Below, one piece after another: positions 739-49,128 of a stretch of 64,000 nucleotides of DNA. The notes beneath the pieces were generated by a model. It searched no databases, was not told the DNA's origin, and saw only the letters and a list, made by a program, of their open reading frames with translations. The first letter of the stretch is position 1. Every line of letters begins with the position of its first letter. The DNA is from an uncultured Gammaproteobacteria bacterium (GTDB lineage Bacteria > Patescibacteriota > Microgenomatia > UBA8517): positions 18,667 through 82,666 of the forward strand of contig CAZSNC010000001.1 in the NCBI GenBank assembly GCA_964608405.1, written 5' to 3'. Position numbers and translations under genes: made by a program.

Positions 739-1965
739 TTAAAAATTATTCATTCCTCCAACCAGACTATAAATTGGGGTTATCATAATTACTACCATGG
801 CTCCAACTGCCACTCCGATCACCAACATCAAAATCGGTTCCAAAAGCGATGTCAACTTTTTCAGGGTAAAATCTACTTCCTTCTCATAAAAATCAGCCAT
901 TTCGGACAATACCTCTTCCAGGCTGCCGCTTTTTTCACCTGCTTTTATTGTTTGCACAACAGTTGAGGGGAAAATCTTTTTCCCGCCGATGATAATTTCC
1001 GAAAGTTGCTTTCCCTGAGCAACACCTGCTCCAAATGACTTTGCCTCCTTCTTAAGGGCGGGTTGTTGAATAATATTTGCACAAACTTCAAGACAAACCA
1101 TAATTGGAACACCACTTGCCAAAAGAGTAGATAGTGTCCTGGAAAAACGCGCAATGTCGATTTGGATTATTAAACCCTTAATTGCAGGCAACTTCATCAT
1201 AAAATCAAAGATTGCGTTCCTGCTTTTCTGAATCGTAAAAAGCAAAAAGACAATCAGTGCTATCGCAAACACTCCTGCAATTACCTCTTTTGTGTACTTT
1301 CCCACAAATATTCCCACATCCAAAACAAATTTTGTAGCTACCGGGAGTTCCACTCCAAGGTCATAAAAAACCTGTGCAAGTTGCGGAAGAACAAAAACAA
1401 GCATCACTACAAAAACTGCTGCCATTGCACACACTATGACAATCGGATAAGTCATTGCGCCTTTCACTTTTTGAACCAATTCATAACTTAAAGTTAATTG
1501 TTTTGACAAATAATCAAATGCCTTGTCCATTGTTCCGGATTCTTCACCGGCTTTCACCATCGTCAAAAATACCGTATCGAAATCTCTTTTGTATTTCGAT
1601 AAGACAGACGAGATTGTTTTACCTTTCCGGACTTCAAACGATACATCTGTTAACACTTTTTTCAGTTTTCGGTTTTTTGTCTCATCTTTGATAATATCGA
1701 TTGCTTCAGGTAAGGGTAATCCTGCACGCAACATCGTTGCCATAAATCTACAAAAAGCCGCTTTTTCCGAGGTTGAAATAGACCCCGCCATTAATCCGCC
1801 TACATCCTGATCCACCTTCTTAATCGTCATTATTTTGTATCCTTCGGAAGCTAATGTGGATGCAGCATCTTTAACGGAGGATGCCTGTAATATATCTTCA
1901 ACCAAATCTCCCCTTTGATTTTTGACTTTAAATGAAAAAAGCGGCATATTATTCTTCTTTTGCAA
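739..1965 (-). CDS. pilC: type IV pilus assembly platform protein PilC (GspF family)
   Basis: 408 aa with two GspF-type repeats and three TM segments; typical PilC N-terminus. Overlaps pilB stop by 17 nt, the usual pilB-pilC arrangement. Confidence 0.85.
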   Translation of the reverse strand: MQKKNNMPLFSFKVKNQRGDLVEDILQASSVKDAASTLASEGYKIMTIKKVDQDVGGLMAGSISTSEKAAFCRFMATMLRAGLPLPEAIDIIKDETKNRKLKKVLTDVSFEVRKGKTISSVLSKYKRDFDTVFLTMVKAGEESGTMDKAFDYLSKQLTLSYELVQKVKGAMTYPIVIVCAMAAVFVVMLVFVLPQLAQVFYDLGVELPVATKFVLDVGIFVGKYTKEVIAGVFAIALIVFLLFTIQKSRNAIFDFMMKLPAIKGLIIQIDIARFSRTLSTLLASGVPIMVCLEVCANIIQQPALKKEAKSFGAGVAQGKQLSEIIIGGKKIFPSTVVQTIKAGEKSGSLEEVLSEMADFYEKEVDFTLKKLTSLLEPILMLVIGVAVGAMVVIMITPIYSLVGGMNNF

Positions 1966-3628
1966 CCCTAAAGACCTCCTCGATTGTAGTTAAACCGGAA
2001 GAAACCTTATCCATCCCGTCACGCATCATCGTAATCATTCCGTCAGCTACTGCTTCCTTAAAAAGTTGTTCCGTAGTAGGTCGTTGAATAATCACTTCAC
2101 GGAGCTTTTCCGTAACCGGCATTATTTCATAAATTCCAATTCTTCCCGAATAACCTTTATGATTACAATCATCACAACCTTTGCCTTTATAAAACTTTAA
2201 TTTTTCAGCCTCACTTCCCAGTTCTTTTGAAAGTTTTTTAAGGACCACCTCATCTGGTGTGTATTTTGCAATGCAAGAAGGACATATTTTTCGAACCAAC
2301 CGTTGAGCAACAACGACATTTAATGTGGATGCCAAAAGAAAGGCTTCTGCTCCCATATCCAAAAGCCTGGGAACCGCGCCGGAAGCGGTATTGGTATGAA
2401 GTGTCGATAAAACCAAATGTCCGGTTAATGCAGAGTGTATTGCAATTTCTGCTGTTTCCTGATCCCTAATCTCTCCAACCATAATAATGTCCGGGTCGTG
2501 TCTCATTAAAGCACGCAGACCTGCCGCAAAAGTAAGGCCTGTTTTGGGATTAACCTGGATTTGTGTAACCCTATTCATCCCGTATTCAATCGGGTCTTCG
2601 ATTGTACATATTTTTACTTCGGCGGTATTAAGCATATTAAGAAGTGAGTAAAGAGTTGTTGTTTTACCGGAACCTGTCGGACCCGTTACCAAAATCATTC
2701 CGTGAGGTTTCATGGAATTTTCCCGCAATATTGCCAAGCCTTGTCCGGTAATTCCCAATTCTTCCAAACTCAAGGGGCGGTTTGTCTCACGCAAAATTCT
2801 CATTACGACATTCTCGCCATAAAAACCGGGTATGATTGAGATACGAAGTGCAATAGCTTCGTCGTCAATATTGAATTTATGTCTGCCGTCCTGAGGAATT
2901 CTATGTTCGTCAATTTTTAGGTTAGAGAGAATTTTTATTCTTGCGACCAACGCCTCCTCGGTTCCTTTTTTGAATTTGAACATATCCCTAAGCATTCCGT
3001 CGATTCTAAAGCGCACCACAACATCTTCGGATTGAGACTCGATATGGATATCGGATGATCGAAGCGCAACAGCATACTCAAAAATCGTATTTAATATCTT
3101 AACAACCGGAATATCCTCTGCCGCTTTTTCCAGATTATCCCCTGGTGACACCTTTTTGATATTCTCCGAAATAATTTTTTCGAAATCGCTTTTTAAATTC
3201 TTTTTATACTGACCAAGAGCTTTGGAGATGTCCTCATTGCGTGCAAAGTAGGGTTCAATTTCATAACCAGTTTGTCTTTTCGCAAATTCTATTGCTTCAA
3301 AATCCTCCGGGTTCTCCATCGCCAATTTGATCTTTTTATCCTTAAACTCGAAGGGGATCATTCTGTAAGTACGGGCAAGTTTTTCGGGTATAAGATTAAG
3401 TATCTCCGTTGGAATAAAAAGTCTTCTTACATCCGCATATGGAATATTAAGATGCTCGGAAATAAGCTTACCGAGTGAATCCTCACTGACAAGTCCTCTA
3501 AAAATTAAAACATCGGAAATATCTCTTCCTTGGTCTTGAGAACTTTTGAACGCGTCATCAAAATCCGCTTCGGTTACATAACCAGATCCTACCAGAATTT
3601 TTTTGAGTTTTTCAGGTGATATAAGCAT
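1949..3628 (-). CDS. pilB: type IV pilus assembly ATPase PilB (GspE family secretion ATPase)
   Basis: 559 aa; N-terminal GspII_E-like region; Walker A LVTGPTGSGKTTTL; Asp/His boxes; C-terminal tetracysteine motif CPSC...CDDC typical of PilB/GspE. Confidence 0.9.
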   Translation of the reverse strand: MLISPEKLKKILVGSGYVTEADFDDAFKSSQDQGRDISDVLIFRGLVSEDSLGKLISEHLNIPYADVRRLFIPTEILNLIPEKLARTYRMIPFEFKDKKIKLAMENPEDFEAIEFAKRQTGYEIEPYFARNEDISKALGQYKKNLKSDFEKIISENIKKVSPGDNLEKAAEDIPVVKILNTIFEYAVALRSSDIHIESQSEDVVVRFRIDGMLRDMFKFKKGTEEALVARIKILSNLKIDEHRIPQDGRHKFNIDDEAIALRISIIPGFYGENVVMRILRETNRPLSLEELGITGQGLAILRENSMKPHGMILVTGPTGSGKTTTLYSLLNMLNTAEVKICTIEDPIEYGMNRVTQIQVNPKTGLTFAAGLRALMRHDPDIIMVGEIRDQETAEIAIHSALTGHLVLSTLHTNTASGAVPRLLDMGAEAFLLASTLNVVVAQRLVRKICPSCIAKYTPDEVVLKKLSKELGSEAEKLKFYKGKGCDDCNHKGYSGRIGIYEIMPVTEKLREVIIQRPTTEQLFKEAVADGMITMMRDGMDKVSSGLTTIEEVFRVAKEE

Positions 3629-8620: not shown

Positions 8621-9700
8621 CTACTCATCGGCTTCTTCCCCAATTTCTTTCGGAATTTTTTTACCGGAGGCGACAACCTCACGAATTTTCTTTTCAATTT
8701 CATCAGCAAGTTTCTTATCTTCCTTAAAAAGGAGTTTTGCACCCTCCTTGCCTTGAGCTAACACTTTTCCTTCGTAATTAAAAAACGAACCTTTCTTCTC
8801 CAGAATCCCCAAATCAACCGCAACATCCAAAAGCCCACCGGTTTTTGAGATTCCCTCATCGTTCATGATATCAAGCTCCGCAATCCGAAGAGGAGGTGCG
8901 ACTTTATTTTTTACAATCCTTACACGATGCCTTGATCCAATTACATTTTCGCCGTCTTTTAAAACCTCTATCCTTCTAATATCAAGTCTTACCGATGCAT
9001 AAAACTTAAGAGCCAAACCACCTGGAGTAGTTTCAGGATTTCCAAACATCACTCCGATTTTTTGCCGAAGTTGATTTGTAAAAATAAGAATTGTTCTGCT
9101 TTTTGAAATTGCACCCGTCAATTTTCTGAGGGCTTGACTCATAAGACGGGCCTGAAGTCCCATTACAGCATCCCCCATTTCCCCCTCAAGTTCTGCCCTG
9201 GGGACCAAAGCAGCAACAGAATCAACAACAATTACGTCCAAAGCACCCGAACGGATCAACGTTTCCGTAATTTCAAGAGCTTGTTCACCAGTATCGGGCT
9301 GTGACAGAAGCAGGTCGTCCAAATTCACACCTATCGTTTCAGCCCTTTTAGGATCAAGTGCGTGTTCAGCATCAACAAAAGCACACTGTCCCCCCATTTT
9401 TTGAGCCTCGGCAATGACATGAAGTGAAAGAGTCGTTTTCCCAGATGCTTCAGGGCCGTATATTTCAATGATCCTTCCTCTGGGAAGACCACCGACACCA
9501 AGTGCCAGATCCAGCGCTATTGAACCGGTTGGCACAACGTCGACTTTAAATTTCTCGTCCGCCCTCTCGCCGAGGCGCATGATCGAACCTTTTCCGTATT
9601 GTTTTTCAATCTGATCCATTGCGAGGCGGATTGCCGTTAGTTTAGCCGAAGAATTTTCTTGCTGCTTGGGAGCTTCCACTACTTTTGCTTTCTTTGCCAT
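8621..9700 (-). CDS. recA: recombinase RecA
   Basis: 359 aa; Walker [11 protein letters not shown]; L1/L2 loop regions; highly conserved RecA core. Confidence 0.95.
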
Positions 9701-9743: not shown

Positions 9744-10715
9744 TTATGGGGCAAGACAACAAGTATCTAAAGTATTATCCGGATCAGTGCCGCAAACCTC
9801 ACCGTTTAGATAATTACACTCCTGATTAGTTATGCATCCATAACCGCCATTACAGGTTGTAAAACCTACAGGTAGTGTTGGAGCTGGAGTTGAGTTAAAA
9901 TTCTCACAGGAAGGATACCAAAGGCCACAAGTGGAATATGTGCCACAGCAAACCCATCGCTGGAATGAATCAAAACAAGCATTGCAGTCAGGGGGAAGTG
10001 TGCAACAACAGTCAGGAAAAGGACCTACTGGATTACATACGGCAGCAGCAACAGAAACCACATTACCTGAACATAAACCATCAGCAACACAACTCCCTGA
10101 AGAAATACTACCGTATACAGCCTGACACGCACTGTTACAATCAGGCGCCGTCGTGGGAGCAGGAGTAAGTGAACCCCTACAGCAACAATTGTTCGGGGGA
10201 TTTGTTAACGCACACATATTATTGTCGGGTACCTCTATTTCATAACTTGCACAACTATTCATCGTACATCTGCCAATATTATTCACATACCCCGCCGCTT
10301 GGCAAGCCGCAGAGCAATCACCTAATGTTCCGGTTGGAATCGAGGTAGGACTAAGCGACACAGTGACGGCTGCCGTTGGACCTACTATTGGAACCCCAAC
10401 ATTACCCAAATTGATTCCAAAAACGACGTTGATTGTTTTTAATATTACCCATAATGCAAAAAGAACAAACAGCCCGGTGACAGCATTAATTATCTTACTC
10501 CTTGCACCTTCCAATTTTTCCTTACTTCCACCGGAGGTAGTCCATTGGATACCACCAAAAATCAAAAGGAGAAAAAATGCGAGTATGCAAATGATATAAC
10601 CAACGTTAATAAATACCGGAATCAATCTATTCGCATAATCCACTGCAGTAAAATTCCTTAATGGTTCGATTAACTGTGGATTGTAAATTCTTTGGACCAG
10701 TGATAGAGCGTTCAT
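9744..10715 (-). CDS. cysteine-rich surface protein with an N-terminal two-helix membrane hairpin (pilin-like) and a C-terminal 6-Cys module; paralog of 11279..13192
   Basis: 323 aa, about 36 Cys. N-terminus is hydrophobic helix - GGIQWTTSGGSKEKLEGARSKIINA - hydrophobic helix; extracellular part is rich in CC/CCC runs. C-terminal CNGGYGCITNQECNYLNGEVC...TCC is shared with the 637-aa protein. ATGA start/stop overlap with the upstream gene. Confidence 0.6.
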   Translation of the reverse strand: MNALSLVQRIYNPQLIEPLRNFTAVDYANRLIPVFINVGYIICILAFFLLLIFGGIQWTTSGGSKEKLEGARSKIINAVTGLFVLFALWVILKTINVVFGINLGNVGVPIVGPTAAVTVSLSPTSIPTGTLGDCSAACQAAGYVNNIGRCTMNSCASYEIEVPDNNMCALTNPPNNCCCRGSLTPAPTTAPDCNSACQAVYGSISSGSCVADGLCSGNVVSVAAAVCNPVGPFPDCCCTLPPDCNACFDSFQRWVCCGTYSTCGLWYPSCENFNSTPAPTLPVGFTTCNGGYGCITNQECNYLNGEVCGTDPDNTLDTCCLAP

Positions 10716-11266
10716 ATTGTTTTTAAAACTTCACCGTTATACACCTTCCATTGAGAGTCAATTTTAACCATTGTGAAATCCCAATAGGTTTTTGTCTGAG
10801 AAACAGTAATTTCAACACCAACATACGCATAGTCTTTATTTTCAGAGTACTTCACACTAAAAACAGTGAATGATATATTATTTTTATATCTTACAACACC
10901 TTCCATAAAATGTTTAAGTTTCTCTTTGGAATTAAGATCTGACAAACTCCCCGACGCTTCATCAACTTGATTGTTTCTTAGTAATTTGAAAAACTTCAAA
11001 AGTTCCACAACAGGCGCTTCGTCAAGATAACCAGTTGATCCGCTTGTAACCGTGCTACCATCTTCTAAGTTGACATCCTGTGACAATAGTCTATCCGTTT
11101 CTAAATTTCTTTTCTCCGAAGATCTTGAAATACTTCCATATGCATTGGAAAAAATTGTAATACCAATAAGTAAAAACACAAATACTCCCAAAATAATTAT
11201 TTTAGAGTTTTTTGACCAAATGAGGGAAAATTTAGATTGTAAATTCAGATTCTGTGGTTGTTCCAT
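10712..11266 (-). CDS. hypothetical membrane-anchored protein (single N-terminal TM, small extracytoplasmic beta-rich domain) encoded between the two Cys-rich paralogs
   Basis: 184 aa; TM helix IIILGVFVFLLIGITIF. C-terminal domain resembles small lipoprotein/NTF2-like folds (YAYVGVEITVSQTKTYWDFTMVKIDSQWKVYNG). 13-bp gap to the upstream gene and 4-bp overlap with the downstream gene. Confidence 0.55.
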   Translation of the reverse strand: MEQPQNLNLQSKFSLIWSKNSKIIILGVFVFLLIGITIFSNAYGSISRSSEKRNLETDRLLSQDVNLEDGSTVTSGSTGYLDEAPVVELLKFFKLLRNNQVDEASGSLSDLNSKEKLKHFMEGVVRYKNNISFTVFSVKYSENKDYAYVGVEITVSQTKTYWDFTMVKIDSQWKVYNGEVLKTI

Positions 11267-11278
11267 AATATTATTTTA

Positions 11279-13192
11279 CTATTGACAGCAGGTTGTACCG
11301 ACCACTGAATCAAATAGGCACTCTTCTCCACCCATATAATCACATTCTTGATTTGTTGTACATCCATAACCACCATTACAGGCAGCAGAAATAGGATTAG
11401 GAACACAATTGCAATACGTCCAGTTAGTTGCATGTCCGTTGCAAAGGGGGGAAGCTATAGACGCCAATATTCCGCTGTAGCACCCGTGTACATTCGTAAG
11501 ACTACACATATCAACATATGTCATACCATTATCAGCAGTACTATTTGTTCCTATCGATTGGCAAAAATCACCGTTACGAAAACCGTTAAGCCAACAAAGG
11601 TCACGGCAAGATATACCAGTTGCTTCGTTCAATAATATGTTTTCAGCAGCTTGACACCTCCCGTTATTACAAATATTTCCGCCGCAACAATCATTACTTG
11701 TCGAACAACCACTACCTGATAAACGACAACATCTTCCGGCGTCACATCCGTATGTCACATCCGGAAGTGAGGAAATATTTCTACAATCATAAGTTTGGGA
11801 CATTGGAGATGTTGAAACACAATAGTTTTCATTTAATAAAACGGAACTGGAGCAGCGGTCAGATACGGAAGAAAAGACACCCAAACTACTCATACTGCTT
11901 ACAAACCCATACGTTGAATAATTTATTCCTCCATCAGTATCAGTACAAAAAGCTGCAATAGTTGGGGTCGGAAAAGGGGTTGCGGTCGGAACAGGAGTGT
12001 TTGTAGGCAACGGTGTTGAGGTTGGAACTCGTGTTGGAGTAGGTGTAGGAATTCTTGTTGGTGTAGATGTTGGAATAGTTGTTGGAGTTTGTGTCGGAAT
12101 TCTTGTTGGAGTGGGAGTTGCGGTTACTGGGGGAAGAAGAATCCTTGTAGGTATGGGTGTGTTTGTTGATGTTGGTACAACTAATGTTGGCGTTGATGTT
12201 GGAAGATCCAAGCCTCCAACTGGCGGTGTCGTCGGAGTAACATAAGTACAAACCCATGCGCATCCAGGAAGTGGAATAATTGAAACACACGCTGCTTGTG
12301 TAAGCCGACCAGGACACCAACTTGGACCCATACACGAACAAAAATTTGGAACCATTGTTGGGGTTGGTATTAAAGACGGTACTAAAGTCGGGGTTACTTG
12401 TGGACAACACCAACAGTCCTGAGTTGGTCCTGTACAATCACCATTGAAATTCTGACAACCTGGATACGGTGGTTGTGAATTTACCCCTGGTGCACCAACA
12501 CAATAACCCTGTGTAAGAGGTGTACCACTCGGAAGGGGTGTACCCGTTGTAGCAATCCTCGTTGTACATAAAACCGAACAGTCTCTATAAACTACTGGTG
12601 ACGGTGCCACCGGACAACAAATGCAATCTGCTGTTGGATCGGTGCAATTGGTATTAGAATCCCCACAACCAACATACGGATAAGGAGTTCCTGCTGGAAT
12701 ACAATATCCAACTGTACTCCCTGTACAATTATCCGTACAACTTCTATATCCCACAACAACCGATGTAGGAGCTGGACCTCCGCTTCCCGCCGTCCCAAAG
12801 TTGGCAATATCCACTCCAAGAATTAGGTAAACAAGTCTTGAGATGACAAAAATAGAAAGAAGAATCAGGAGTCCGATAATGGCATGAGTAATCTTTCCTC
12901 TTGCTTCCGCAAGTTTACTTTTGTCACCACCTGCCGTAATCCACTGAAATGCTCCGATAATAAAAACAATGACAAAGACAACAACAGCGATTATATAAAC
13001 AATATTTAGCACCCTTGGAATTATTGTATTGATATAATCCCACCCACGTCCGAGCCCACCACTTAAGACGGGATTTGAAACCTGAGTTAACAATACCGAA
13101 TTTAAAAACATACCAATCACTATGATATTAACATAAAGTTGTGAGTATATTCTATAAGTGACACCACACCTCCTTTGTGAATATGAAATCAA
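11279..13192 (-). CDS. large cysteine-rich surface protein: N-terminal pilin-like membrane hairpin, internally duplicated Cys modules, Pro/Thr-rich tandem-repeat linker, C-terminal 6-Cys module
   Basis: Up to 637 aa (the ORF track starts at a TTG; the probable start is ATG at 13111, MFLNS...). Shared N-terminal motif FQWITAGGDKSKLAEARGKITHAII. Internal repeat NCTDPTADCICCP / GDCTGPTQDCWCCP. PT-repeat linker (PTPTRIPT units). A hevein-like spaced-Cys stretch CCRLSGSGCSTSNDCCGGNICNNGRCQ. C-terminal CNGGYGCTTNQECDYMGGEEC...TCCQ. Confidence 0.6.
   Translation of the reverse strand: MISYSQRRCGVTYRIYSQLYVNIIVIGMFLNSVLLTQVSNPVLSGGLGRGWDYINTIIPRVLNIVYIIAVVVFVIVFIIGAFQWITAGGDKSKLAEARGKITHAIIGLLILLSIFVISRLVYLILGVDIANFGTAGSGGPAPTSVVVGYRSCTDNCTGSTVGYCIPAGTPYPYVGCGDSNTNCTDPTADCICCPVAPSPVVYRDCSVLCTTRIATTGTPLPSGTPLTQGYCVGAPGVNSQPPYPGCQNFNGDCTGPTQDCWCCPQVTPTLVPSLIPTPTMVPNFCSCMGPSWCPGRLTQAACVSIIPLPGCAWVCTYVTPTTPPVGGLDLPTSTPTLVVPTSTNTPIPTRILLPPVTATPTPTRIPTQTPTTIPTSTPTRIPTPTPTRVPTSTPLPTNTPVPTATPFPTPTIAAFCTDTDGGINYSTYGFVSSMSSLGVFSSVSDRCSSSVLLNENYCVSTSPMSQTYDCRNISSLPDVTYGCDAGRCCRLSGSGCSTSNDCCGGNICNNGRCQAAENILLNEATGISCRDLCWLNGFRNGDFCQSIGTNSTADNGMTYVDMCSLTNVHGCYSGILASIASPLCNGHATNWTYCNCVPNPISAACNGGYGCTTNQECDYMGGEECLFDSVVGTTCCQ
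11985..12245 (-). repeat. in-frame tandem Pro/Thr-rich repeat region (PTPTRIPT-type units) inside the 637-aa Cys-rich protein
   Basis: DNA-level periodicity encoding ...PTSTPTLVVPTSTNTPIPTRILLPPVTATPTPTRIPTQTPTTIPTSTPTRIPTPTPTRVPTSTPLPTNTPVPTATPFPTPT. Both alternative frames and the antisense strand give long artefactual ORFs (11997..12245 +, 11940..12437 -), as expected for low-complexity repeats. Confidence 0.7.
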
Positions 13193-13218: not shown

Positions 13219-13292
13219 CGGGGTGTAGTTTAACGGTAGAATGGGCGCATGGGGTGCGTCCGGCGGCAGTTCAATTCTGCCCACCCCGACCA
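13219..13292 (+). tRNA. tRNA-Pro (anticodon GGG)
   Basis: Hand-folded cloverleaf: 7-bp acceptor CGGGGTG/CACCCCG; U8 A9; D-loop AACGGTA with the conserved GG; anticodon stem GGCGC/GCGTC; loop AUGGGGU (U33, anticodon GGG, G37); 4-nt variable loop; T-arm GGCAG-TTCAATT-CTGCC; discriminator A; encoded CCA. Confidence 0.75.
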
Positions 13293-13297
13293 AAATT

Positions 13298-13624
13298 ATG
13301 AAGGTTAATAATAATATCAGGTCGGCAATTTCAAATATTAGTAAGAACAAACTTCTTACAGTAGCTGTCTTACTAACATTCTTTCCTTTTGTTATTTGGT
13401 CTTTTGGTGCAGTCAGTTATATTTGGGCAATAATTTCCAACTTTGTTCTCACTAAACTTCCCGTATGGACTACGGTGTTTTTCTTATTGGTCGCTCCTTT
13501 TTTAGCCTTTTTCTTAAGCTTAATCAACTATTTAAATAAAAAGGATAAATTATCCAAAAAGCTCTTTCTGTTAAATCTCGTTTTTATCTCGCTCTCGATT
13601 ATTTCCTCACTTCTGTTTTCCTGA
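13298..13624 (+). CDS. small hypothetical polytopic membrane protein (3-4 TM helices)
   Basis: The ORF-track ORF 13241..13624 overlaps the tRNA, so it is trimmed here to the first ATG after the tRNA (MKVNNNIRSAISN...). Strongly hydrophobic. It is the only plausible plus-strand CDS in the window and is weakly supported. Confidence 0.35.
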   Translation: MKVNNNIRSAISNISKNKLLTVAVLLTFFPFVIWSFGAVSYIWAIISNFVLTKLPVWTTVFFLLVAPFLAFFLSLINYLNKKDKLSKKLFLLNLVFISLSIISSLLFS

Positions 13625-13630
13625 AAAAAT

Positions 13631-13882
13631 TCATGCTACACGTTCGTTGAGGGCACTGTAGAATTTCTGTAGATAATTTTCCGCTTTGTCCCAATGTTCA
13701 TCGCTCTGATTTTTTTCGGCTAAATTCCTTTCAATATTTGCTAAAACAAACAAATGTGCCGCCTTTGCAGCCTGAAATAGGGAGATCCTATAAACCTCTG
13801 CATATAAATTCTTAGCAATATCCTCGGCATCCCCTGAGTTTTTTATATCCCCCGTATCGTTAATTTCTTTCCAAAATTTCAC
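13631..13882 (-). CDS. hypothetical small helical protein
   Basis: 83-aa ORF in the same frame as, and just downstream of, the uppS C-terminal extension, separated from it by stop codons. No recognisable motif. Confidence 0.4.
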   Translation of the reverse strand: MKFWKEINDTGDIKNSGDAEDIAKNLYAEVYRISLFQAAKAAHLFVLANIERNLAEKNQSDEHWDKAENYLQKFYSALNERVA

Positions 13883-13975: not shown

Positions 13976-14941
13976 CTACTTTCTTTCATTACCCTCAGTA
14001 AACGCTTGAGAAAGTAACTGCCCTGCTTCTTTTGCTAAGTGTTTTGACAAACCATACTGTTCTTTAACATGAGCTGCTGCATAGTCACGAAATCTGGTGT
14101 CATTTGGTATATTTGCAAGTCTCCACCAATTGATTTCCAGATCGGCAATAAGTTCGGGTTTAAACATCAAATGACTTTCCCTGTCGTTTCCACCAAACCT
14201 CCGTCTTCTTCTTGAATAATCCAATACGGCATCTTTCAATTTTTCGGGGGTAAAATCGGGGAAATGGTCGTTTTCCCAAAAATATTCAGTGTACGGTGAA
14301 TCCCAAAGAAGAAATCCGCTTGTTCTTTGCTCACCAGAAGTTCGTATCATAAGATCAACATATGGATAAGGTTGGTTGTGAAGATCTACATATTTATCCA
14401 AAACCTCTTTCGATATTTCATTCTCGGATAGTCCATCAGCAACCATCTTCTTAATGGCTCTAATTATGTCGTCTTGTCCTCCATAATCGATTGCCAGATT
14501 AATAATATGTTTAGTGTTTTTTTCCGTCATCTTCTCCGCATATGAAATCTTCTCTAAAAGAAATTTCGGAATTCTGTCCTTTCTGCCTATATGAACGATC
14601 CTTATTCCGTCTTGTTTTGCTTCCATCAGATAGTCATCGATAAGTTTCTTATAAAGTTTCATCAAATACTTAACCTCATCTTCACTCCTATCCCAATTTT
14701 CCGTGGAAAAACCCCATAAAGTTACTGTGTGTACACCCATCTTTCTAGCGGCACGCCCTACCTCTACTGCTCTTTCAAAACCAGCTTTATGTCCCAGAAG
14801 CGTATGAAGCCCGCGGGAACGCGCCCAACGCCTATTGCCATCCGGAATCAACGCAATATGATTTGGTACCTTTGTTCCTTTGGGAAGTTTGAGGCTTGTG
14901 TCGGAAGACATGAGGAGATTATAACATAAGACCATCAACAA
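13976..14941 (-). CDS. uppS: isoprenyl transferase / undecaprenyl-diphosphate synthase (UppS) with about 70-aa C-terminal extension
   Basis: Catalytic motif IALIPDGNRRWA (UPPS DGNGRWA box), the central WGFSTENW and the ...SRRRRRFGG end of the canonical fold, followed by an extra helical tail. Confidence 0.8.
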   Translation of the reverse strand: MLMVLCYNLLMSSDTSLKLPKGTKVPNHIALIPDGNRRWARSRGLHTLLGHKAGFERAVEVGRAARKMGVHTVTLWGFSTENWDRSEDEVKYLMKLYKKLIDDYLMEAKQDGIRIVHIGRKDRIPKFLLEKISYAEKMTEKNTKHIINLAIDYGGQDDIIRAIKKMVADGLSENEISKEVLDKYVDLHNQPYPYVDLMIRTSGEQRTSGFLLWDSPYTEYFWENDHFPDFTPEKLKDAVLDYSRRRRRFGGNDRESHLMFKPELIADLEINWWRLANIPNDTRFRDYAAAHVKEQYGLSKHLAKEAGQLLSQAFTEGNERK

Positions 14942-46154: not shown

Positions 46155-46814
46155 TCAAATCTGTGTTAACAGTGCTCTTACCACCAATCTTTTTGGTTTT
46201 AACGGATGCCCGGGTGGAACACAGGTAACAAGACTAAGGTATGAGTCGTTAACCCTCTGATCCAATATCTCCAGATTGTCCGGTTCCACCTCAAACATAT
46301 CCTTGACCCGATATTTATACACTACATCCCCAATATACACAAAAAATTCATCACCGGGGGTTAATTTCGGAATTGTCGAAAAGATTGTTAAATAGTTCTT
46401 TGCATTAAAAAATACCGGAAGTACTGAATGCCCGAAAATAACAGTGTTGCCGAGCCTGCCTGGCATAGCTGTTCCCGGGTATTGGATAAGCCCTTCCGAA
46501 AGATCCTCACCACCTTCATAAACCGTTGCTTTTTCTATCCCCAGTTTTGGAATGGACAGATAGTATTGGCCTGTACTTTTTTGCTCTGTACCAAATTCAT
46601 AACTTGCCGACCATTCTCTAATGTTTGAATAATCCCTTCCGATTGTAGATAAAATACCATAACGTTCATTTACGGTGATTGGGCTTAATAGTTTCGGAAA
46701 TCTTGTCCTGGAAGTAAGTTCATACTCAGCAATCGGATATACCGAAAAGATTATTATTAATATACCAAATACCGCCAAAATAACAGAGATTACGCGGTAT
46801 TTTGCTTTCACCAT
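46155..46814 (-). CDS. sortase family transpeptidase
   Basis: 219 aa; N-terminal TM anchor; conserved LIQYPGTAMPGRLGNTVIFGHS (catalytic His) and LSLVTC (TLxTC catalytic Cys) motifs; conserved Arg in ...KPKRLVVRA. Confidence 0.75.
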   Translation of the reverse strand: MVKAKYRVISVILAVFGILIIIFSVYPIAEYELTSRTRFPKLLSPITVNERYGILSTIGRDYSNIREWSASYEFGTEQKSTGQYYLSIPKLGIEKATVYEGGEDLSEGLIQYPGTAMPGRLGNTVIFGHSVLPVFFNAKNYLTIFSTIPKLTPGDEFFVYIGDVVYKYRVKDMFEVEPDNLEILDQRVNDSYLSLVTCVPPGHPLKPKRLVVRALLTQI

Positions 46815-46824
46815 TTTCTTGGAC

Positions 46825-49128
46825 TCACTTTTCAGCGCTTATGGAAATTTCTATATTGTCAGCTATTCTGGGAAGTGTCCCAAGCTTTCCGGGAAAACGG
46901 AATTTTTTAAAATTAATTACGGATCTCACGTAACCGGGAACATTATTTTTCATATATTCATCCGCTGTTTCCGGGTATTTTCCGGTAATGTTTTTTCTAA
47001 TTTCATCAATGTCAACCTGTGGAAGAAGATTTGCGCTGACAAAAAGGGACATGTAGTATGTATCATCCTTTTTATTTTTATAAGTGAAATCAGCCTGAAT
47101 CTGATCATTTTTTAAACTGTATCCACTCGGAACCCTCTCGTTTAAATATTTAAGTCCCAACTCTTCTATTTCGCTTCGTTTGGCCAACACTCCCTCCGCC
47201 TCAAGATCAAGTGTTAATTTGAGCGAGGATCCTTCGTCACCAACTTTTTTGTCGTAATCTTTCTTTGCAACGGAATATGTAATCGAGTCTGTAATTAACA
47301 TGTAATCCGACGATACGGCATTTTCCAATTCGTCTTTGAGTGTAGTTTCAAGTTCCTCCTGAAGACTTTCAAGCAAATTCTTCTGATCGCCTTCCGAAAT
47401 CGCGTTTACTTCACGGCTACTCCCGCCGGAAAAGGCCGATTCGTTGGTTGCCTCCATATCGGAGGATGAATAGTTTGATATTGTAAAAGTAGTTCCAGAG
47501 GCGAGGTTGTACTGCGCCCCGATTTCTTTTGCTGTTACCTTTACTTTGGTAATACCGCGTGTCAACACACTGCCACTTGCTACTGTAGTATCTTCATCCA
47601 GAGAAAAATTCAAACTTCCCGGCCCTTTAACTATCGTGTTTTTTGTAAGATTGATTGAGCTGCCTGCCCGGTATATTGTAATCTCCCCCGTTGCTTTATC
47701 TCCAATCACTTTCGTACCCGTAGTTTGCATACTTTTCTCACCGGAGGTTTTCTTAGTTACAACTTCACCGGAAACAACTGCGTTTTCAAAATCTGTTGTG
47801 TTTGATGAAGCGTCTACAGAAATTTCGACTTCGTCTTCAATTTTTTTCGGGGAGACATACAGTGTTACTTCTGCCTTCGGGAAAAACCACCAAAAAGCAA
47901 AAAAACCACCAAGAAGAAGGAAAAGAAACATTAAACCGATAAAAATGGTTTTAGGTGCCTTGAATTTTAGATTAAACTTGGGGAATGAAAATTTGATTTT
48001 CGGTAGGGATATTTTGGTAAATATCGATGTTTTTTCACCCTTTTGCATTACCTGGTTTGGAGCCACCGGCTGAGGCACTGTGGGTTGGGAAATAACTTCT
48101 TCTTTATTTGCTTCTTCACGAACTTGATTTTGGGAATAGTTATCCGAGTCACTTTCCCGAAAATTCTCATAATCTCCCGATTCAGAACTGACTGTAAAAC
48201 CAAAATCTTCAGGGCTCAAATTCTCCGGAGGTTCCTCCACGTTTGTAATCTGCTCCACCGATAATTCCGATTCCGGAGTTTCATTCATATTTTCAACATT
48301 TGCATTTGTGCCCAATGGAGATTCTACAAGCGGCATTACTTTTGTAACATCTCCCATCTCAGCCCCACCGGCAAGACATACAGCATAAATCTTCCTGTCA
48401 GGTGCAACAATTTCAATCTTCGGGGTGTGGAGAAATTTCACTTCCTTCAAACCTTCCCAGTCTGCCTTGATAAGCTCTTGTTTTATCTCATCCAATTCTC
48501 CTTCCTTTGAGTTATAAAGGATAATTCTTGACGGGTACGCTTCCCCCGAATAAAAACGGGAGAGTCCTTCTGTTACGTCTTCAACAACAGAAACACTTCT
48601 GGCAATTTGCGATACGCCTACAAGTTTTCCCAACCTGAAAATGGAAAGCTCCAGATTATTTTCTGAAACACCCAAAAATATCGCGTTGACCTGCCCCCCC
48701 TCCTCGCTTTTGTAATAGTTGGACAACGCCTCAGCCATTACGACAAAACCAACAGGTGTCAACGAAAGTTCCGAGCAGACTCTCTTAATTTTTGAAAGAT
48801 ATTCCTCTTTTATCTCGCCTCCTTCAACCCAGGAAGATACCACTCCAAAAACCACCTTAGATGGAGGATTAAGTTCCTCCGGGAAATTTTGGACTGCCGA
48901 AGAGCAGGAAGCGTCACAAGCAGAAACCAATTCTTCATCAAGATGCCACGAAGACGGAGGGCTTATAGTCACTACCTTTACTTTGTCCCCCTCTAATTTC
49001 CATATACCGGCTGACGCCCATTCCGGCTCGATAATTAAAGACCAGAAGTATTCTTCATCATCCTCTTTCTTCTTGGGCAGGATATTTTTTAAGTCCATAA
49101 ATAACTTGAGATAAAAGGTGATGTGCAA
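46825..49128 (-). CDS. large bitopic membrane protein: cytoplasmic actin-fold (PilM/FtsA/GspL-cyto-like) domain, acidic linker, single TM, and a 350-aa extracellular Ser/Thr-rich beta domain
   Basis: 767 aa. Residues about 20-300 show actin-fold phosphate-1/phosphate-2-like segments (LIIEPEWASAGIWKLEGDKVKVVTIS ... NAIFLGVSENNLELSIFRLGKLVGVS). The TM segment is TIFIGLMFLFLLLGGFFAFWWFF. No obvious catalytic motif in the extracellular part. Abuts the sortase gene (10-bp gap). Confidence 0.55.
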   Translation of the reverse strand: MHITFYLKLFMDLKNILPKKKEDDEEYFWSLIIEPEWASAGIWKLEGDKVKVVTISPPSSWHLDEELVSACDASCSSAVQNFPEELNPPSKVVFGVVSSWVEGGEIKEEYLSKIKRVCSELSLTPVGFVVMAEALSNYYKSEEGGQVNAIFLGVSENNLELSIFRLGKLVGVSQIARSVSVVEDVTEGLSRFYSGEAYPSRIILYNSKEGELDEIKQELIKADWEGLKEVKFLHTPKIEIVAPDRKIYAVCLAGGAEMGDVTKVMPLVESPLGTNANVENMNETPESELSVEQITNVEEPPENLSPEDFGFTVSSESGDYENFRESDSDNYSQNQVREEANKEEVISQPTVPQPVAPNQVMQKGEKTSIFTKISLPKIKFSFPKFNLKFKAPKTIFIGLMFLFLLLGGFFAFWWFFPKAEVTLYVSPKKIEDEVEISVDASSNTTDFENAVVSGEVVTKKTSGEKSMQTTGTKVIGDKATGEITIYRAGSSINLTKNTIVKGPGSLNFSLDEDTTVASGSVLTRGITKVKVTAKEIGAQYNLASGTTFTISNYSSSDMEATNESAFSGGSSREVNAISEGDQKNLLESLQEELETTLKDELENAVSSDYMLITDSITYSVAKKDYDKKVGDEGSSLKLTLDLEAEGVLAKRSEIEELGLKYLNERVPSGYSLKNDQIQADFTYKNKKDDTYYMSLFVSANLLPQVDIDEIRKNITGKYPETADEYMKNNVPGYVRSVINFKKFRFPGKLGTLPRIADNIEISISAEK

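Follow-up and report, generated by a model that had tools for sequence, protein, structure and literature searches.

The cassette of three genes proposed in the initial annotation is real, and it lies within the analysed window, a 64-kb stretch of DNA from an ultra-small, uncultivated bacterium, as three co-directional open reading frames on the minus strand: 9744..10715 (gene A, 323 aa), 10712..11266 (gene B, 184 aa) and 11279..13192 (637 aa, with a TTG start). The length of 637 aa for the long product was corrected to 610 aa (gene C, 11279..13111), with the ATG at 13111 as the most likely start, since the database contains an identical protein of 610 aa (P0006) and the orthologues and the paralogue all align from that methionine. 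The first 27 codons of the mechanical ORF, which reaches the TTG at 13192, are probably untranslated. Genes B and A share an ATGA overlap, as had been stated, but genes C and B are separated by 12 nt and not by 13 bp. The placement beside recA and a tRNA-Pro was also correct, and both bound the locus: the tRNA-Pro (GGG) on its upstream side (13219..13292, plus strand; ARAGORN, and Rfam RF00005 with 53.3 bits) and recA on its downstream side (8621..9700, minus strand), 43 nt past gene A on the same strand and with no terminator-like site found between the two. The probably untranslated opening codons, together with imperfect DNA repeats encoding a Pro/Thr stretch, might suggest that a low-complexity region here contains only chance ORFs or pseudogenes. 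The conservation data effectively refute this, as intact orthologues with preserved reading frames and invariant cysteines occur across several genomes and samples, a Pfam domain is matched above threshold, and the same proteins were independently assembled from at least four sequencing runs.

The pilin-like N-terminal hairpin of the two large proteins was borne out at the family level. In HMM searches the N-terminal part of both exceeded the gathering threshold of PF18895 (T4SS_pilin), the VirB2-like pilin family of CPR/Patescibacteria, with 29.8 bits for gene A and 36.7 bits for gene C against a Pfam cut-off of 26.6, the hairpin domain in isolation reached 41.1 bits, and all 13 family members tested matched. 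Judged from these profile matches the hairpin is a member of PF18895. Matches to the classical TrbC/VirB2 family PF04956 were sub-threshold (10.7-16.2 bits, cut-off 27.9; E 0.013-0.65). The domain covers residues 1-108 of both proteins, in gene A at 10392..10715 (PF18895 match, hydropathy and alignment) and in gene C at 12788..13111, both on the minus strand, the latter with a Q-x-x-N-P motif, helix 1, the loop WITAGGDKSKLAEARGKI and helix 2. Kyte-Doolittle hydropathy gave two hydrophobic helices in each large protein, and AlphaFold2 predicted helices at residues 22-59 and 64-98 of the gene C hairpin (pLDDT 70-82). The homology of the two products at both ends, as first described, is well beyond chance by BLASTP (N-terminal alignment, E=2e-13; C-terminal CNGGYGC module, E=5e-8, 17 of 24 residues identical).

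The closest short relatives are one specific member of pilin arrays of 5-11 genes (hmmsearch E 1e-24 to 1e-30), and some of these bear C-terminal tails with 8-14 Cys. In array homologues a Sec-type signal peptide with a final AxA is followed at once by the same Q-x-x-N-P start, while other homologues consist of a signal peptide, a Cys-rich domain and a pilin domain, in line with both hairpin termini being outside, as in conjugative pilins. In the latter the loop, with its positive charge, points into the lumen, and the two termini are adjacent (PMC12037004). From the homologues and the charge distribution, a corresponding topology appears probable for the cassette proteins.

Past the hairpin, each large protein is built as a mosaic in which small Cys modules are combined with Pro/Thr linkers. 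The gene C protein, with 48 Cys in 610 aa, carries (all on the minus strand) two tandem Cys modules of the form C-x3-C ... G-x-C ... C ... C-x-CC (residues 125-236, 12404..12739; regex and MAFFT), a small 6-Cys cluster CSCMGPSWCPGRLTQAACVSIIPLPGCAWVC (residues 258-288, 12248..12340), a Pro/Thr-rich linker (residues 290-385, 11957..12244) coded by imperfect tandem repeats of 12/24/48 nt (found by Tandem Repeats Finder at 12012-12120), a conserved distal head (residues 388-575, 11387..11950) and the C-terminal 6-Cys module CNGGYGCTTNQECDY...CC (residues 578-610, 11282..11380). The head is composed of FCTDxDGG, a knottin-like CC...DCC...C...C and ILNEA...NWTYCNC modules and is also found in P0007-P0019. 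In the 14-sequence alignment A2, 20 of its Cys are invariant or nearly so, and 18 Cys are invariant over 14 sequences, while its Pfam matches were all sub-threshold (DUF7107, E 0.0014; Dickkopf_N, E 0.007). The gene A protein contains 29 Cys and not about 36 as initially counted. It has two tandem Cys modules ending in CCC (residues 134-238, 10002..10316), a module CNACFDSFQRWVCC...CG..YPSC (residues 244-270, 9906..9986), with which the C-type proteins P0008 and P0009 end as well, and the C-terminal 6-Cys module CNGGYGCITNQECNY...CC (residues 288-323, 9747..9854), again all on the minus strand. Its database relatives are P0001 (near-identical) and P0002 (76% identical).

The two large proteins had been considered unrelated in the middle. 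By BLAST this holds (best ectodomain-only E 0.022 over 8 residues; module-spanning E 0.27), but both carry two tandem C-x3-C...G-x-C...C-x(0,1)-CC modules right after the hairpin. Modules are shared between paralogue types, CFDSF by A323, P0008 and P0009, and CNGGYGC by A and C. The number of ectodomain Cys is even in all 20 of the 20 family members examined, which have 5.5-13% Cys, as would be expected of an extracytoplasmic part in which every Cys is disulfide-bonded. The proposal of a pilin-type hairpin joined to large disulfide-rich extracytoplasmic domains is supported. On the other hand, the C-terminal 6-Cys module is not the mark of a family: when 241 million metagenome records were scanned for the CNGGYGC motif, the only matches were the locus in its orthologous form and a single unrelated protein, and the module is limited to a small clade. 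Nor is there a fixed plan of N-terminal pilin, variable core and C-terminal knot, this being one among many module combinations. The statement that no characterised family has this arrangement stands as to characterisation, but Cys-rich extensions of the PF18895 domain recur in public genomes, where 47 of 378 pilin-domain ORFs carry one. The searchable literature yielded no fusion of PF18895 to a large Cys-rich domain, nor any experimental demonstration of pilus formation by a PF18895 protein.

Gene B (10712..11266, minus strand) encodes a single-pass membrane protein, in agreement with the one hydrophobic helix in its Kyte-Doolittle profile. Its short tail in the cytoplasm and its TM helix are conserved, its linker is variable, and its outer part is an alpha+beta domain of about 100 aa, modelled as two helices followed by a 4-5-stranded sheet. 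Such a layout, with an N-terminal tail, one TM helix and an NTF2-like outer domain, would fit a divergent VirB8-type T4SS subunit, and the cassette would then be a T4SS fragment and not an accessory adhesin locus. Besides the modelled secondary structure, sub-threshold Pfam matches to MlaC, DUF4878 and DUF4829, which we take to be NTF2-like families, speak for this. VirB8/TraM-type subunits and TraQ-like chaperones share the short tail, the one TM helix and the outer alpha+beta domain, and gene B also adjoins pilin genes; TraQ of the F plasmid is a small pilin chaperone. However, the model is of poor confidence (mean pLDDT 47), the structural likeness based on it is weak, and gene B gave no sequence match to any T4SS family. 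Furthermore, its family has only 11 representatives in 1.84 billion proteins, exclusively inside this cassette type, where a core T4SS subunit would be expected to be widespread. A VirB8-type identity is therefore improbable.

The cassette had been regarded as an accessory island, but it occupies a conserved and syntenic uppS-recA locus in a Woesebacteria-like (Microgenomatia) lineage and is not mobile. Its GC content of 0.449 is equalled by other 1-kb bins of the window and is no compositional outlier. The cassette is kept between uppS and recA in L003, and L009 shows the same order starting at uppS. Adjacency to recA is seen in L001, L003, L005, L071 and L077, with pilin-domain genes immediately upstream of recA in L071 and L077 (one each), L001 (three) and L005 (one, of 214 aa). 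The parts diverge unequally: relative to L003, identity is 95% for RecA, 86% for the pilin domains, 67-76% for the gene C ectodomain and 39% for gene B, which is the fastest-diverging of the genes compared and a hot spot of differences between strains. The gene A ectodomain is replaced in L003, the nucleotide similarity to the positional orthologue stopping at 10390. Across the related Woesebacteria-like genomes the pilin domain keeps about 86% identity, whereas the ectodomains diverge, exchange modules or give way to others altogether.

T4SS genes had been named among the neighbours to look for. Neither VirB4 nor any other T4SS gene was found in the 64-kb window or within 10 kb past either end, and the closest genes for a filament are those of a type IV pilus cluster. 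A sortase gene does occur, about 33 kb away, but the cassette proteins have no LPXTG signal. At five Microgenomatia loci the large ORFs flanking the arrays likewise gave no match to VirB4, but only to SpoIID, NAGPA and, below threshold, SLT_3 (lysozyme-like).

VirB2-like arrays are widespread in Patescibacteria and have been catalogued by Quinonero-Coronel et al. 2025, with an average paralogue identity of 25% (PMC12102498); an array of six pilins is essential in Southlakia epibionticum ML1. The cassette shares with these arrays the family PF18895 above threshold, the enrichment in Microgenomatia and a low paralogue identity (39%, as compared with the 25% average). In contrast, array members are mostly of 95-160 aa (293 of 378), 225 of these 293 without Cys outside the domain, whereas the cassette domain carries disulfide-rich ectodomains of 215 and 500 residues, is fixed between uppS and recA and not next to virB4 or dnaA, has the private accessory gene B, and has the Sec-type signal peptide of some array members cut to 7-10 residues. 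Conjugative pilins of the VirB2/TraA/TrhA type (PF04956) have a similar helix-loop-helix with a short positively charged loop, a small hydrophobic core and both termini on the outer side (PMC12037004), but the cassette proteins fall below the PF04956 cut-off, have neither a long cleavable leader nor adjacent T4SS genes, belong to a monoderm host, and their large C-terminal extension would preclude head-to-tail cyclisation. In modular type IV pilins, e.g. PilB of Streptococcus sanguinis, a conserved pilin module is likewise grafted to an adhesive module, giving a simple filament or anchor new binding properties (PMC8179133). Type IV pilins are nevertheless an unrelated class with a single helix at the N terminus and a class III signal peptide; the cassette proteins have neither this architecture nor an N_methyl motif, and they carry Cys-knot mosaics instead of recognisable folds such as the vWA of PilB. 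The large Cys-rich extracellular proteins of CPR bacteria (Peregrinibacteria) resemble them in being rich in Cys, predicted to be extracellular, proposed to serve attachment and variable between strains, but average about 1,650 aa and have ordinary signal peptides and no pilin domain (PMC4736985); no sequence relationship to the cassette proteins was detected.

We consider it reasonably probable that genes A and C encode modular VirB2-like pilin-domain proteins which, with gene B as a dedicated small membrane partner, act as putative variable cell-surface binding proteins. The lack of T4SS genes in and around the window, the sub-threshold match to classical TrbC/VirB2, the absence of matches in a tblastn search against 72,556 plasmids, the low mean pLDDT of the ectodomain (44) and the failure of its fold or Pfam matches to indicate any binding activity weigh against this, as does the difficulty of packing ectodomains of 215-500 residues on every subunit of a helical filament. 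Several of the same observations would suit a hairpin that is only a two-pass anchor, on proteins that never polymerise and have no tie to a T4SS, their Cys-rich parts being structural components of the envelope or matrix, or binding proteins held at the membrane: T4SS genes are absent from the window and its surroundings, the array-flanking ORFs also lack VirB4, the ectodomains are very large relative to a 70-residue pilin core, and the classical VirB2/TrbC match is sub-threshold. One TM helix would, however, suffice as an anchor, and the hairpin stays about 86% identical while the attached parts change, and keeps the Q-x-x-N-P of array pilins, which suggests contact with a conserved partner rather than mere anchoring. 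We thus regard pure anchoring as rather unlikely. Still less likely, and only faintly plausible, are released effectors, with a hairpin that exports and retains knottin-like modules until they are cleaved off as toxins, protease inhibitors or antimicrobial peptides, and gene B as an immunity or processing factor. The fast evolution of gene B would be as in immunity proteins, and one module has a weak knottin-type resemblance, extending beyond DUF7107 and Dickkopf_N to spider-toxin families (E 0.16-2.3), but all toxin-like matches are below threshold, and no cleavage site, toxin domain or support from defence libraries was recognised. Gene B has a conserved cytoplasmic tail and TM helix and no similarity to known immunity proteins, and both Pro/Thr stalks and mosaics of several modules are what one typically finds in surface proteins that stay tethered.

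In the favoured reading as variable surface-binding proteins, the PF18895 hairpin would sit in the cytoplasmic membrane with both ends facing out and the positively charged loop (GGDK.KL..AR.KI) facing in, and the C-terminal part would be exported and oxidised to a large number of small modules knotted by disulfides. The Pro/Thr stalk of the longer protein, about 95 residues in length, would keep the conserved distal head off the cell. The hairpin would be held constant by its fit to a conserved membrane or assembly machinery, and it may take part in a VirB2-type filament, either as a minor subunit or at the tip. Gene B would most likely be an assembly or stabilising partner. The cassette is best seen as an undescribed form within a known gene family and not as an entirely new system. 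As putative adhesins, its ectodomains would provide binding surfaces toward a host or partner cell, or the envelope thereof, that vary by module shuffling, changes in linker length and replacement of whole ectodomains.

The three ORFs of the cassette, A (9744..10715, 323 aa), B (10712..11266, 184 aa) and C (11279..13192, 637 aa when read from a TTG), are tightly packed on one strand (-). The initial annotation had described a coupled three-gene cassette with an ATGA overlap and a 13-bp gap; the ORFs and the overlap, which joins B and A, were confirmed, but the spacing between C and B is 12 nt. The true start of C is almost certainly the ATG at 13111, giving a protein of 610 aa: an identical 610-aa protein (P0006) is present in NCBI-derived data, and the paralogue and all orthologues align from the Met at this position. 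The proposed homology of A and C at both ends was borne out by BLASTP, with E=2e-13 for the N-terminal region and E=5e-8 (17 of 24 residues identical) for the C-terminal 6-Cys module, CNGGYGC(I/T)TNQEC. By hydropathy, A and C each have two strong hydrophobic segments and B has a single one, in agreement with the description of B as a single-TM protein. The number of Cys residues in the 323-aa protein had been overestimated at about 36; the totals are 29 in A and 48 in C. Since ORFs, BLASTP homology between A and C, Cys counts and hydropathy agree, the observation is real and the numerical corrections are small. A promoter and terminator scan of the locus yielded counts no higher than chance.

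The N-terminal two-helix domains (hairpins) of A and C are members of the PF18895 (T4SS_pilin) family of VirB2-like pilins. Both proteins scored above the curated gathering threshold of 26.6 bits (A, 29.8 bits; C, 36.7 bits), the isolated hairpin reached 41.1 bits, and 13 of 13 aligned relatives matched. The TrbC/VirB2 model that had also been proposed (PF04956, gathering threshold 27.9 bits) stayed below threshold (10.7 bits, E 0.65; isolated hairpin, 16.2 bits, E 0.013), and matched one of the 13 relatives. NCBIfam gave sub-threshold matches only, such as Mbov_0395, a Mycoplasma pilin-like conjugal protein (21.2 bits, cut-off 40), and a PDB sequence search with the pilin-domain profile returned no match.

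The pilin-like hairpin was recovered by structure prediction. The hydropathy segments of the hairpin proteins lie at 28-62/73-104 and 53-90/98-133, and AlphaFold2 predicted two long helices (22-59 and 64-98) with an AGGD turn between them, the sole part of the model with a pLDDT of 70-82. In the hairpin alignment W57, T59, G61 and A70 are invariant, and R71 is nearly so. A and C do not qualify as type IV pilins, as there is no Pfam N_methyl match and two helices instead of one, nor as LPXTG sortase-anchored proteins, as their C-termini read ...DTCCLAP and ...TTCCQ. Typical PF18895 pilins are stand-alone proteins of about 100-150 aa, in contrast to the 323 and 610 aa found here. A 2025 survey added PF18895 and PF04956 to the CONJScan pilin profiles for 'VirB2-like pilins' of Patescibacteria (PMC12102498).

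When GTDB was searched with the hairpin profile, using one genome per species, 66 loci were obtained. Records with lineage titles were mostly from Microgenomatia (Woese-, Davies-, Gottesman-, Levy-, Collier- and Woykebacteria), with a few from Paceibacterota, Komeilibacteria or Saccharimonadales. About two dozen records were titled 'uncultured Gammaproteobacteria' or 'Pseudomonadales', and a few 'bacterium', Clostridia or Nevskiaceae; the proteobacterial titles are taken to be mislabels. At most loci, 5-11 short pilins that lack Cys form an array, and 293 of the 378 distinct pilin-domain ORFs measure at most 160 aa. A Cys-rich C-terminal extension comparable to those of A and C is carried by 17 of the 378, and a Cys-bearing N-terminal extension by 30. 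The nearest relatives of A and C are one particular array member, which keeps a Q-x-x-N-P start and sometimes bears a tail with 8-14 Cys.

Many short-pilin arrays open with a gene of reversed build, encoding a signal peptide, a Cys-rich domain (up to 33 Cys) and a C-terminal pilin domain in 300-600 aa (L006 7355-8479, L008 6215-7306, L010 7659-8603 and L027 1949-3133). Typical Microgenomatia arrays are also flanked by SpoIID-domain proteins (L006 5633-7381 and 12647-14791; L010 5867-7666), and the downstream flank in L006 holds a NAGPA-domain protein that has a sub-threshold match to SLT_3 (lysozyme-like) as well. Among ten large ORFs flanking typical arrays at five loci there was no VirB4/T4SS ATPase.

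The Q-x-x-N-P motif is the conserved start of the pilin domain and lies within residues 8-14 of each pilin-domain protein of the cassette (13070-13090 in C and 10674-10694 in A, both -). In some array homologues (L016, L035, L037) the motif comes directly after a Sec-type signal peptide with AxA at its end, so that Gln would be the mature N-terminus there; VirB2 is also cleaved before Gln. Classical conjugative pilins (PF04956) have a long leader that is cleaved by signal peptidase. In A and C the motif is preceded by no more than 7-10 residues. The hairpin loop (e.g. WITAGGDKSKLAEARGKI) is the segment with the highest positive charge. From this charge distribution, and from homologues that carry a signal peptide and/or a Cys domain on either flank (signal peptide and Cys-bearing domain N-terminal of the pilin domain in 30, Cys-rich domain C-terminal of it in 17), the hairpin is predicted to have both termini outside and the loop inside. 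Conjugative pilins share this arrangement, with a positively charged loop lining the lumen and adjacent termini (PMC12037004).

The Cys-rich remainders of A and C (ectodomains) each begin, after the hairpin, with two tandem C-x3-C...G-x-C...C-x(0,1)-CC modules. The middle regions had been called unrelated, and by BLAST this holds: a module-spanning alignment gave E=0.27, and the best E value, 0.022, covered 8 residues. The pattern of two tandem modules is nevertheless common to both proteins. Homology of these modules was not accepted, as the BLAST result is not significant and the Cys pattern is all that they have in common. In C the tandem modules are followed by a small cluster of 6 Cys. 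Next comes a Pro/Thr stalk, about 95 residues long, for which imperfect 12/24/48-nt repeats code. The distal head of C consists of an FCTDxDGG module, a knottin-like CC...DCC...C...C module and an ILNEA...NWTYCNC module, with 18 Cys invariant in an alignment of 14 proteins, and the CNGGYGC module forms the C-terminus. A has neither stalk nor head; it continues with a CNACFDSF..W.CC...CG..YP.C module, which is the tail of the C-type database proteins P0008 and P0009, and then the CNGGYGC module. The number of ectodomain Cys residues is even in 20 out of 20 family proteins, with a Cys content of 5.5-13%, and an even number is what is expected of fully disulfide-bonded extracytoplasmic domains.

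No Pfam family was found above its gathering threshold with the isolated ectodomain modules; the knottin-like module gave sub-threshold matches to DUF7107 (19.4 bits against 24.6, E 0.0014) and Dickkopf_N (17.1 bits against 25, E 0.007). AlphaFold2 modeling of the 610-aa C, using the 14-sequence alignment, resulted in a mean pLDDT of 44, with the ectodomain below 50 and the hairpin alone usable, and a Foldseek search of this model against PDB returned nothing with E below 3 (Dkk4 appeared at E=3). Structure prediction was thus informative for the hairpin but not for the ectodomain.

It had been asked whether the CNGGYGC module defines a family. Apart from the orthologous locus, a metagenome scan for it hit a single protein, an unrelated repeat protein of high GC, and the module, being restricted to the clade of the present locus, was discarded as a family marker. 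The CNGGYGC cores of A (9810-9854) and C (11336-11382) are about 85% identical in nucleotides, compared with about 55% for the pilin domains; gene conversion between A and C, or plain codon bias, may lie behind the difference.

The window is a core-gene run of a CPR genome, with ribosomal protein operons, rpoBC, EF-Tu/G, recA-recX-rny and a type IV pilus pilB/pilC pair, and an extension by 10 kb past each end added PilM and a type IV pilin. T4SS families, including the VirB4/VirD4 neighbors that had been considered for the cassette, were absent from the 64-kb window and from the 10 kb past each end. The cassette itself had been regarded as an accessory-looking island. However, it occupies the same position in related genomes and is therefore not an island, and the reading as a horizontally acquired island was rejected on grounds of synteny and composition. 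The order is uppS - small membrane ORF - C - B - A - (B') - recA in L003, where B' is a second small membrane protein; L009 (Ca. Woesebacteria GW2011_GWA1_39_21) has the same order from uppS on, with recA not adjacent. L071 and L077 show B - A - recA, L078 shows C - B - A - B', and L001 (Ca. Woesebacteria RIFCSPLOWO2_01_FULL_39_23) has three long PF18895 genes immediately upstream of recA. Two pilin-domain genes with B between them are present in the window, and two to three copies at the same locus in relatives. A tblastn search of plasmids with the pilin domain found no match.

Several features of the surroundings were recorded. The type IV pilus cluster (PilB and PilC, then PilM and an N_methyl pilin; 739-3628, continuing past the left end of the window at L073 10714-16925) begins about 6 kb downstream of the cassette, with recA, recX, rny, hup, miaA and an AI-2E-family permease in between. 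On the other side, uppS (13976..14941, -) stops at an in-frame TAG (13976-13978) where L003 and L009 have Trp (TGG), and its frame runs on into an 83-aa ORF (13631..13882) that matches the C-terminal extension of UppS in L003 and L009 (426-432 aa); the TAG stems from a nonsense mutation or a sequencing error, or else the gene is split, and the catalytic part is intact. A 127-aa ORF (13241-13624, +) starts within the tRNA-Pro gene, and the region probably encodes, from a later start, a small multi-pass membrane protein, which is conserved and has a counterpart at the corresponding position of L003 and L009. A sortase gene (46155..46814, -), unlinked to the cassette, lies directly downstream of a gene for a 767-aa protein (46825-49128, -) with a Baseplate_J-like domain (E 4.9e-7), an odd pair in a core-gene region.

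Compared with L003, in which core genes are about 77-82% identical in nucleotides, identities were 95% for RecA, 92% for RNase Y, 86% for the pilin domains of both A and C, 67-76% for the C ectodomain and 39% for B. The A ectodomain has no homology to that of its positional orthologue in L003, and nucleotide similarity ends at 10390. As an alternative A-type ectodomain (DADADGFY...CNDNNN...) is common to L003, L009 and L078, the version in the window is the derived one. Relative to L077, which is 98% identical overall, mismatches amount to 4-5% in the 5' half of B and the tail of C, as against 0.6% in A and 1.0% in recA; divergence or recombination is concentrated locally in the stretch 10969-11458.

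B evolves fast and is a putative partner private to A and C: its family has 11 representatives among 1.84 billion proteins and is confined to this cassette type among the loci examined. A PDB sequence search with the B profile found no match, and an NTF2-like outer domain, as expected of a VirB8-like T4SS subunit, is hinted at. The single-pass B' (172-180 aa) follows A in L003 (11263-11805), L009 (12923-13441) and L078 (3994-4524) and is absent from the window. B and B' are not demonstrably related, since profile-profile comparison with hhalign gave a probability of 5%.

The best-supported interpretation is that the locus is a conserved site encoding surface proteins that are variable and rich in disulfides and have a VirB2-like pilin as their core. 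The hairpin core is constrained, presumably by a partner in the membrane or in assembly, and the outer modules are shuffled and replaced, as expected of partner-recognition or otherwise exposed surfaces. Roles of A and C in adhesion and episymbiosis are possible. Cys-rich extracellular proteins of CPR bacteria have been proposed as attachment factors (PMC4736985). That the arrangement belonged to no characterised family was partly correct, as the PF18895 family of VirB2-like pilins is published but the modular architecture and its fixed chromosomal locus are undescribed, and literature searches gave nothing on Cys-rich fusions to PF18895 pilins.

The question is whether A and C sit in the membrane only or join a filament as minor or tip subunits. 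The conserved hairpin core and its kinship to the array pilins favor entry into a filament, but the ectodomains are bulky and no T4SS genes are linked to the cassette within the window and 10 kb on each side. We consider it unlikely that 'modular VirB2-type pilins' are recognised here for the first time, with A and C as conjugative-type pilin cores bearing exchangeable disulfide-knotted recognition heads at either terminus, which as minor or tip subunits of a Patescibacterial T4SS-related filament would set partner or host specificity. B would then be a dedicated, co-evolving assembly chaperone, and the recA-linked locus would serve Microgenomatia as a contingency locus governing host range.

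If the hairpin is an anchor only, the cassette adds modestly to the known Cys-rich surface proteins of CPR bacteria. T4SS-related pilin arrays of Patescibacteria have been found essential in the sole species tried, S. epibionticum with its six-pilin array (review, PMC12857230), and the role of the Saccharibacterial T4SS has been called 'completely unknown' (perspective, PMC11665869). If some members of the family bear large, fast-diversifying, disulfide-rich heads at the two possible outer termini, the pilin core may be a display scaffold for partner recognition. The 'modular pilin' concept of type IV pili would then also apply to conjugative-type pilins, and there would be a concrete, testable handle on host specificity in uncultivated Microgenomatia, namely which modules bind what. 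As judged from sequence, the locus suggests a way in which these pilin arrays might encode specificity, and this idea can be tested.
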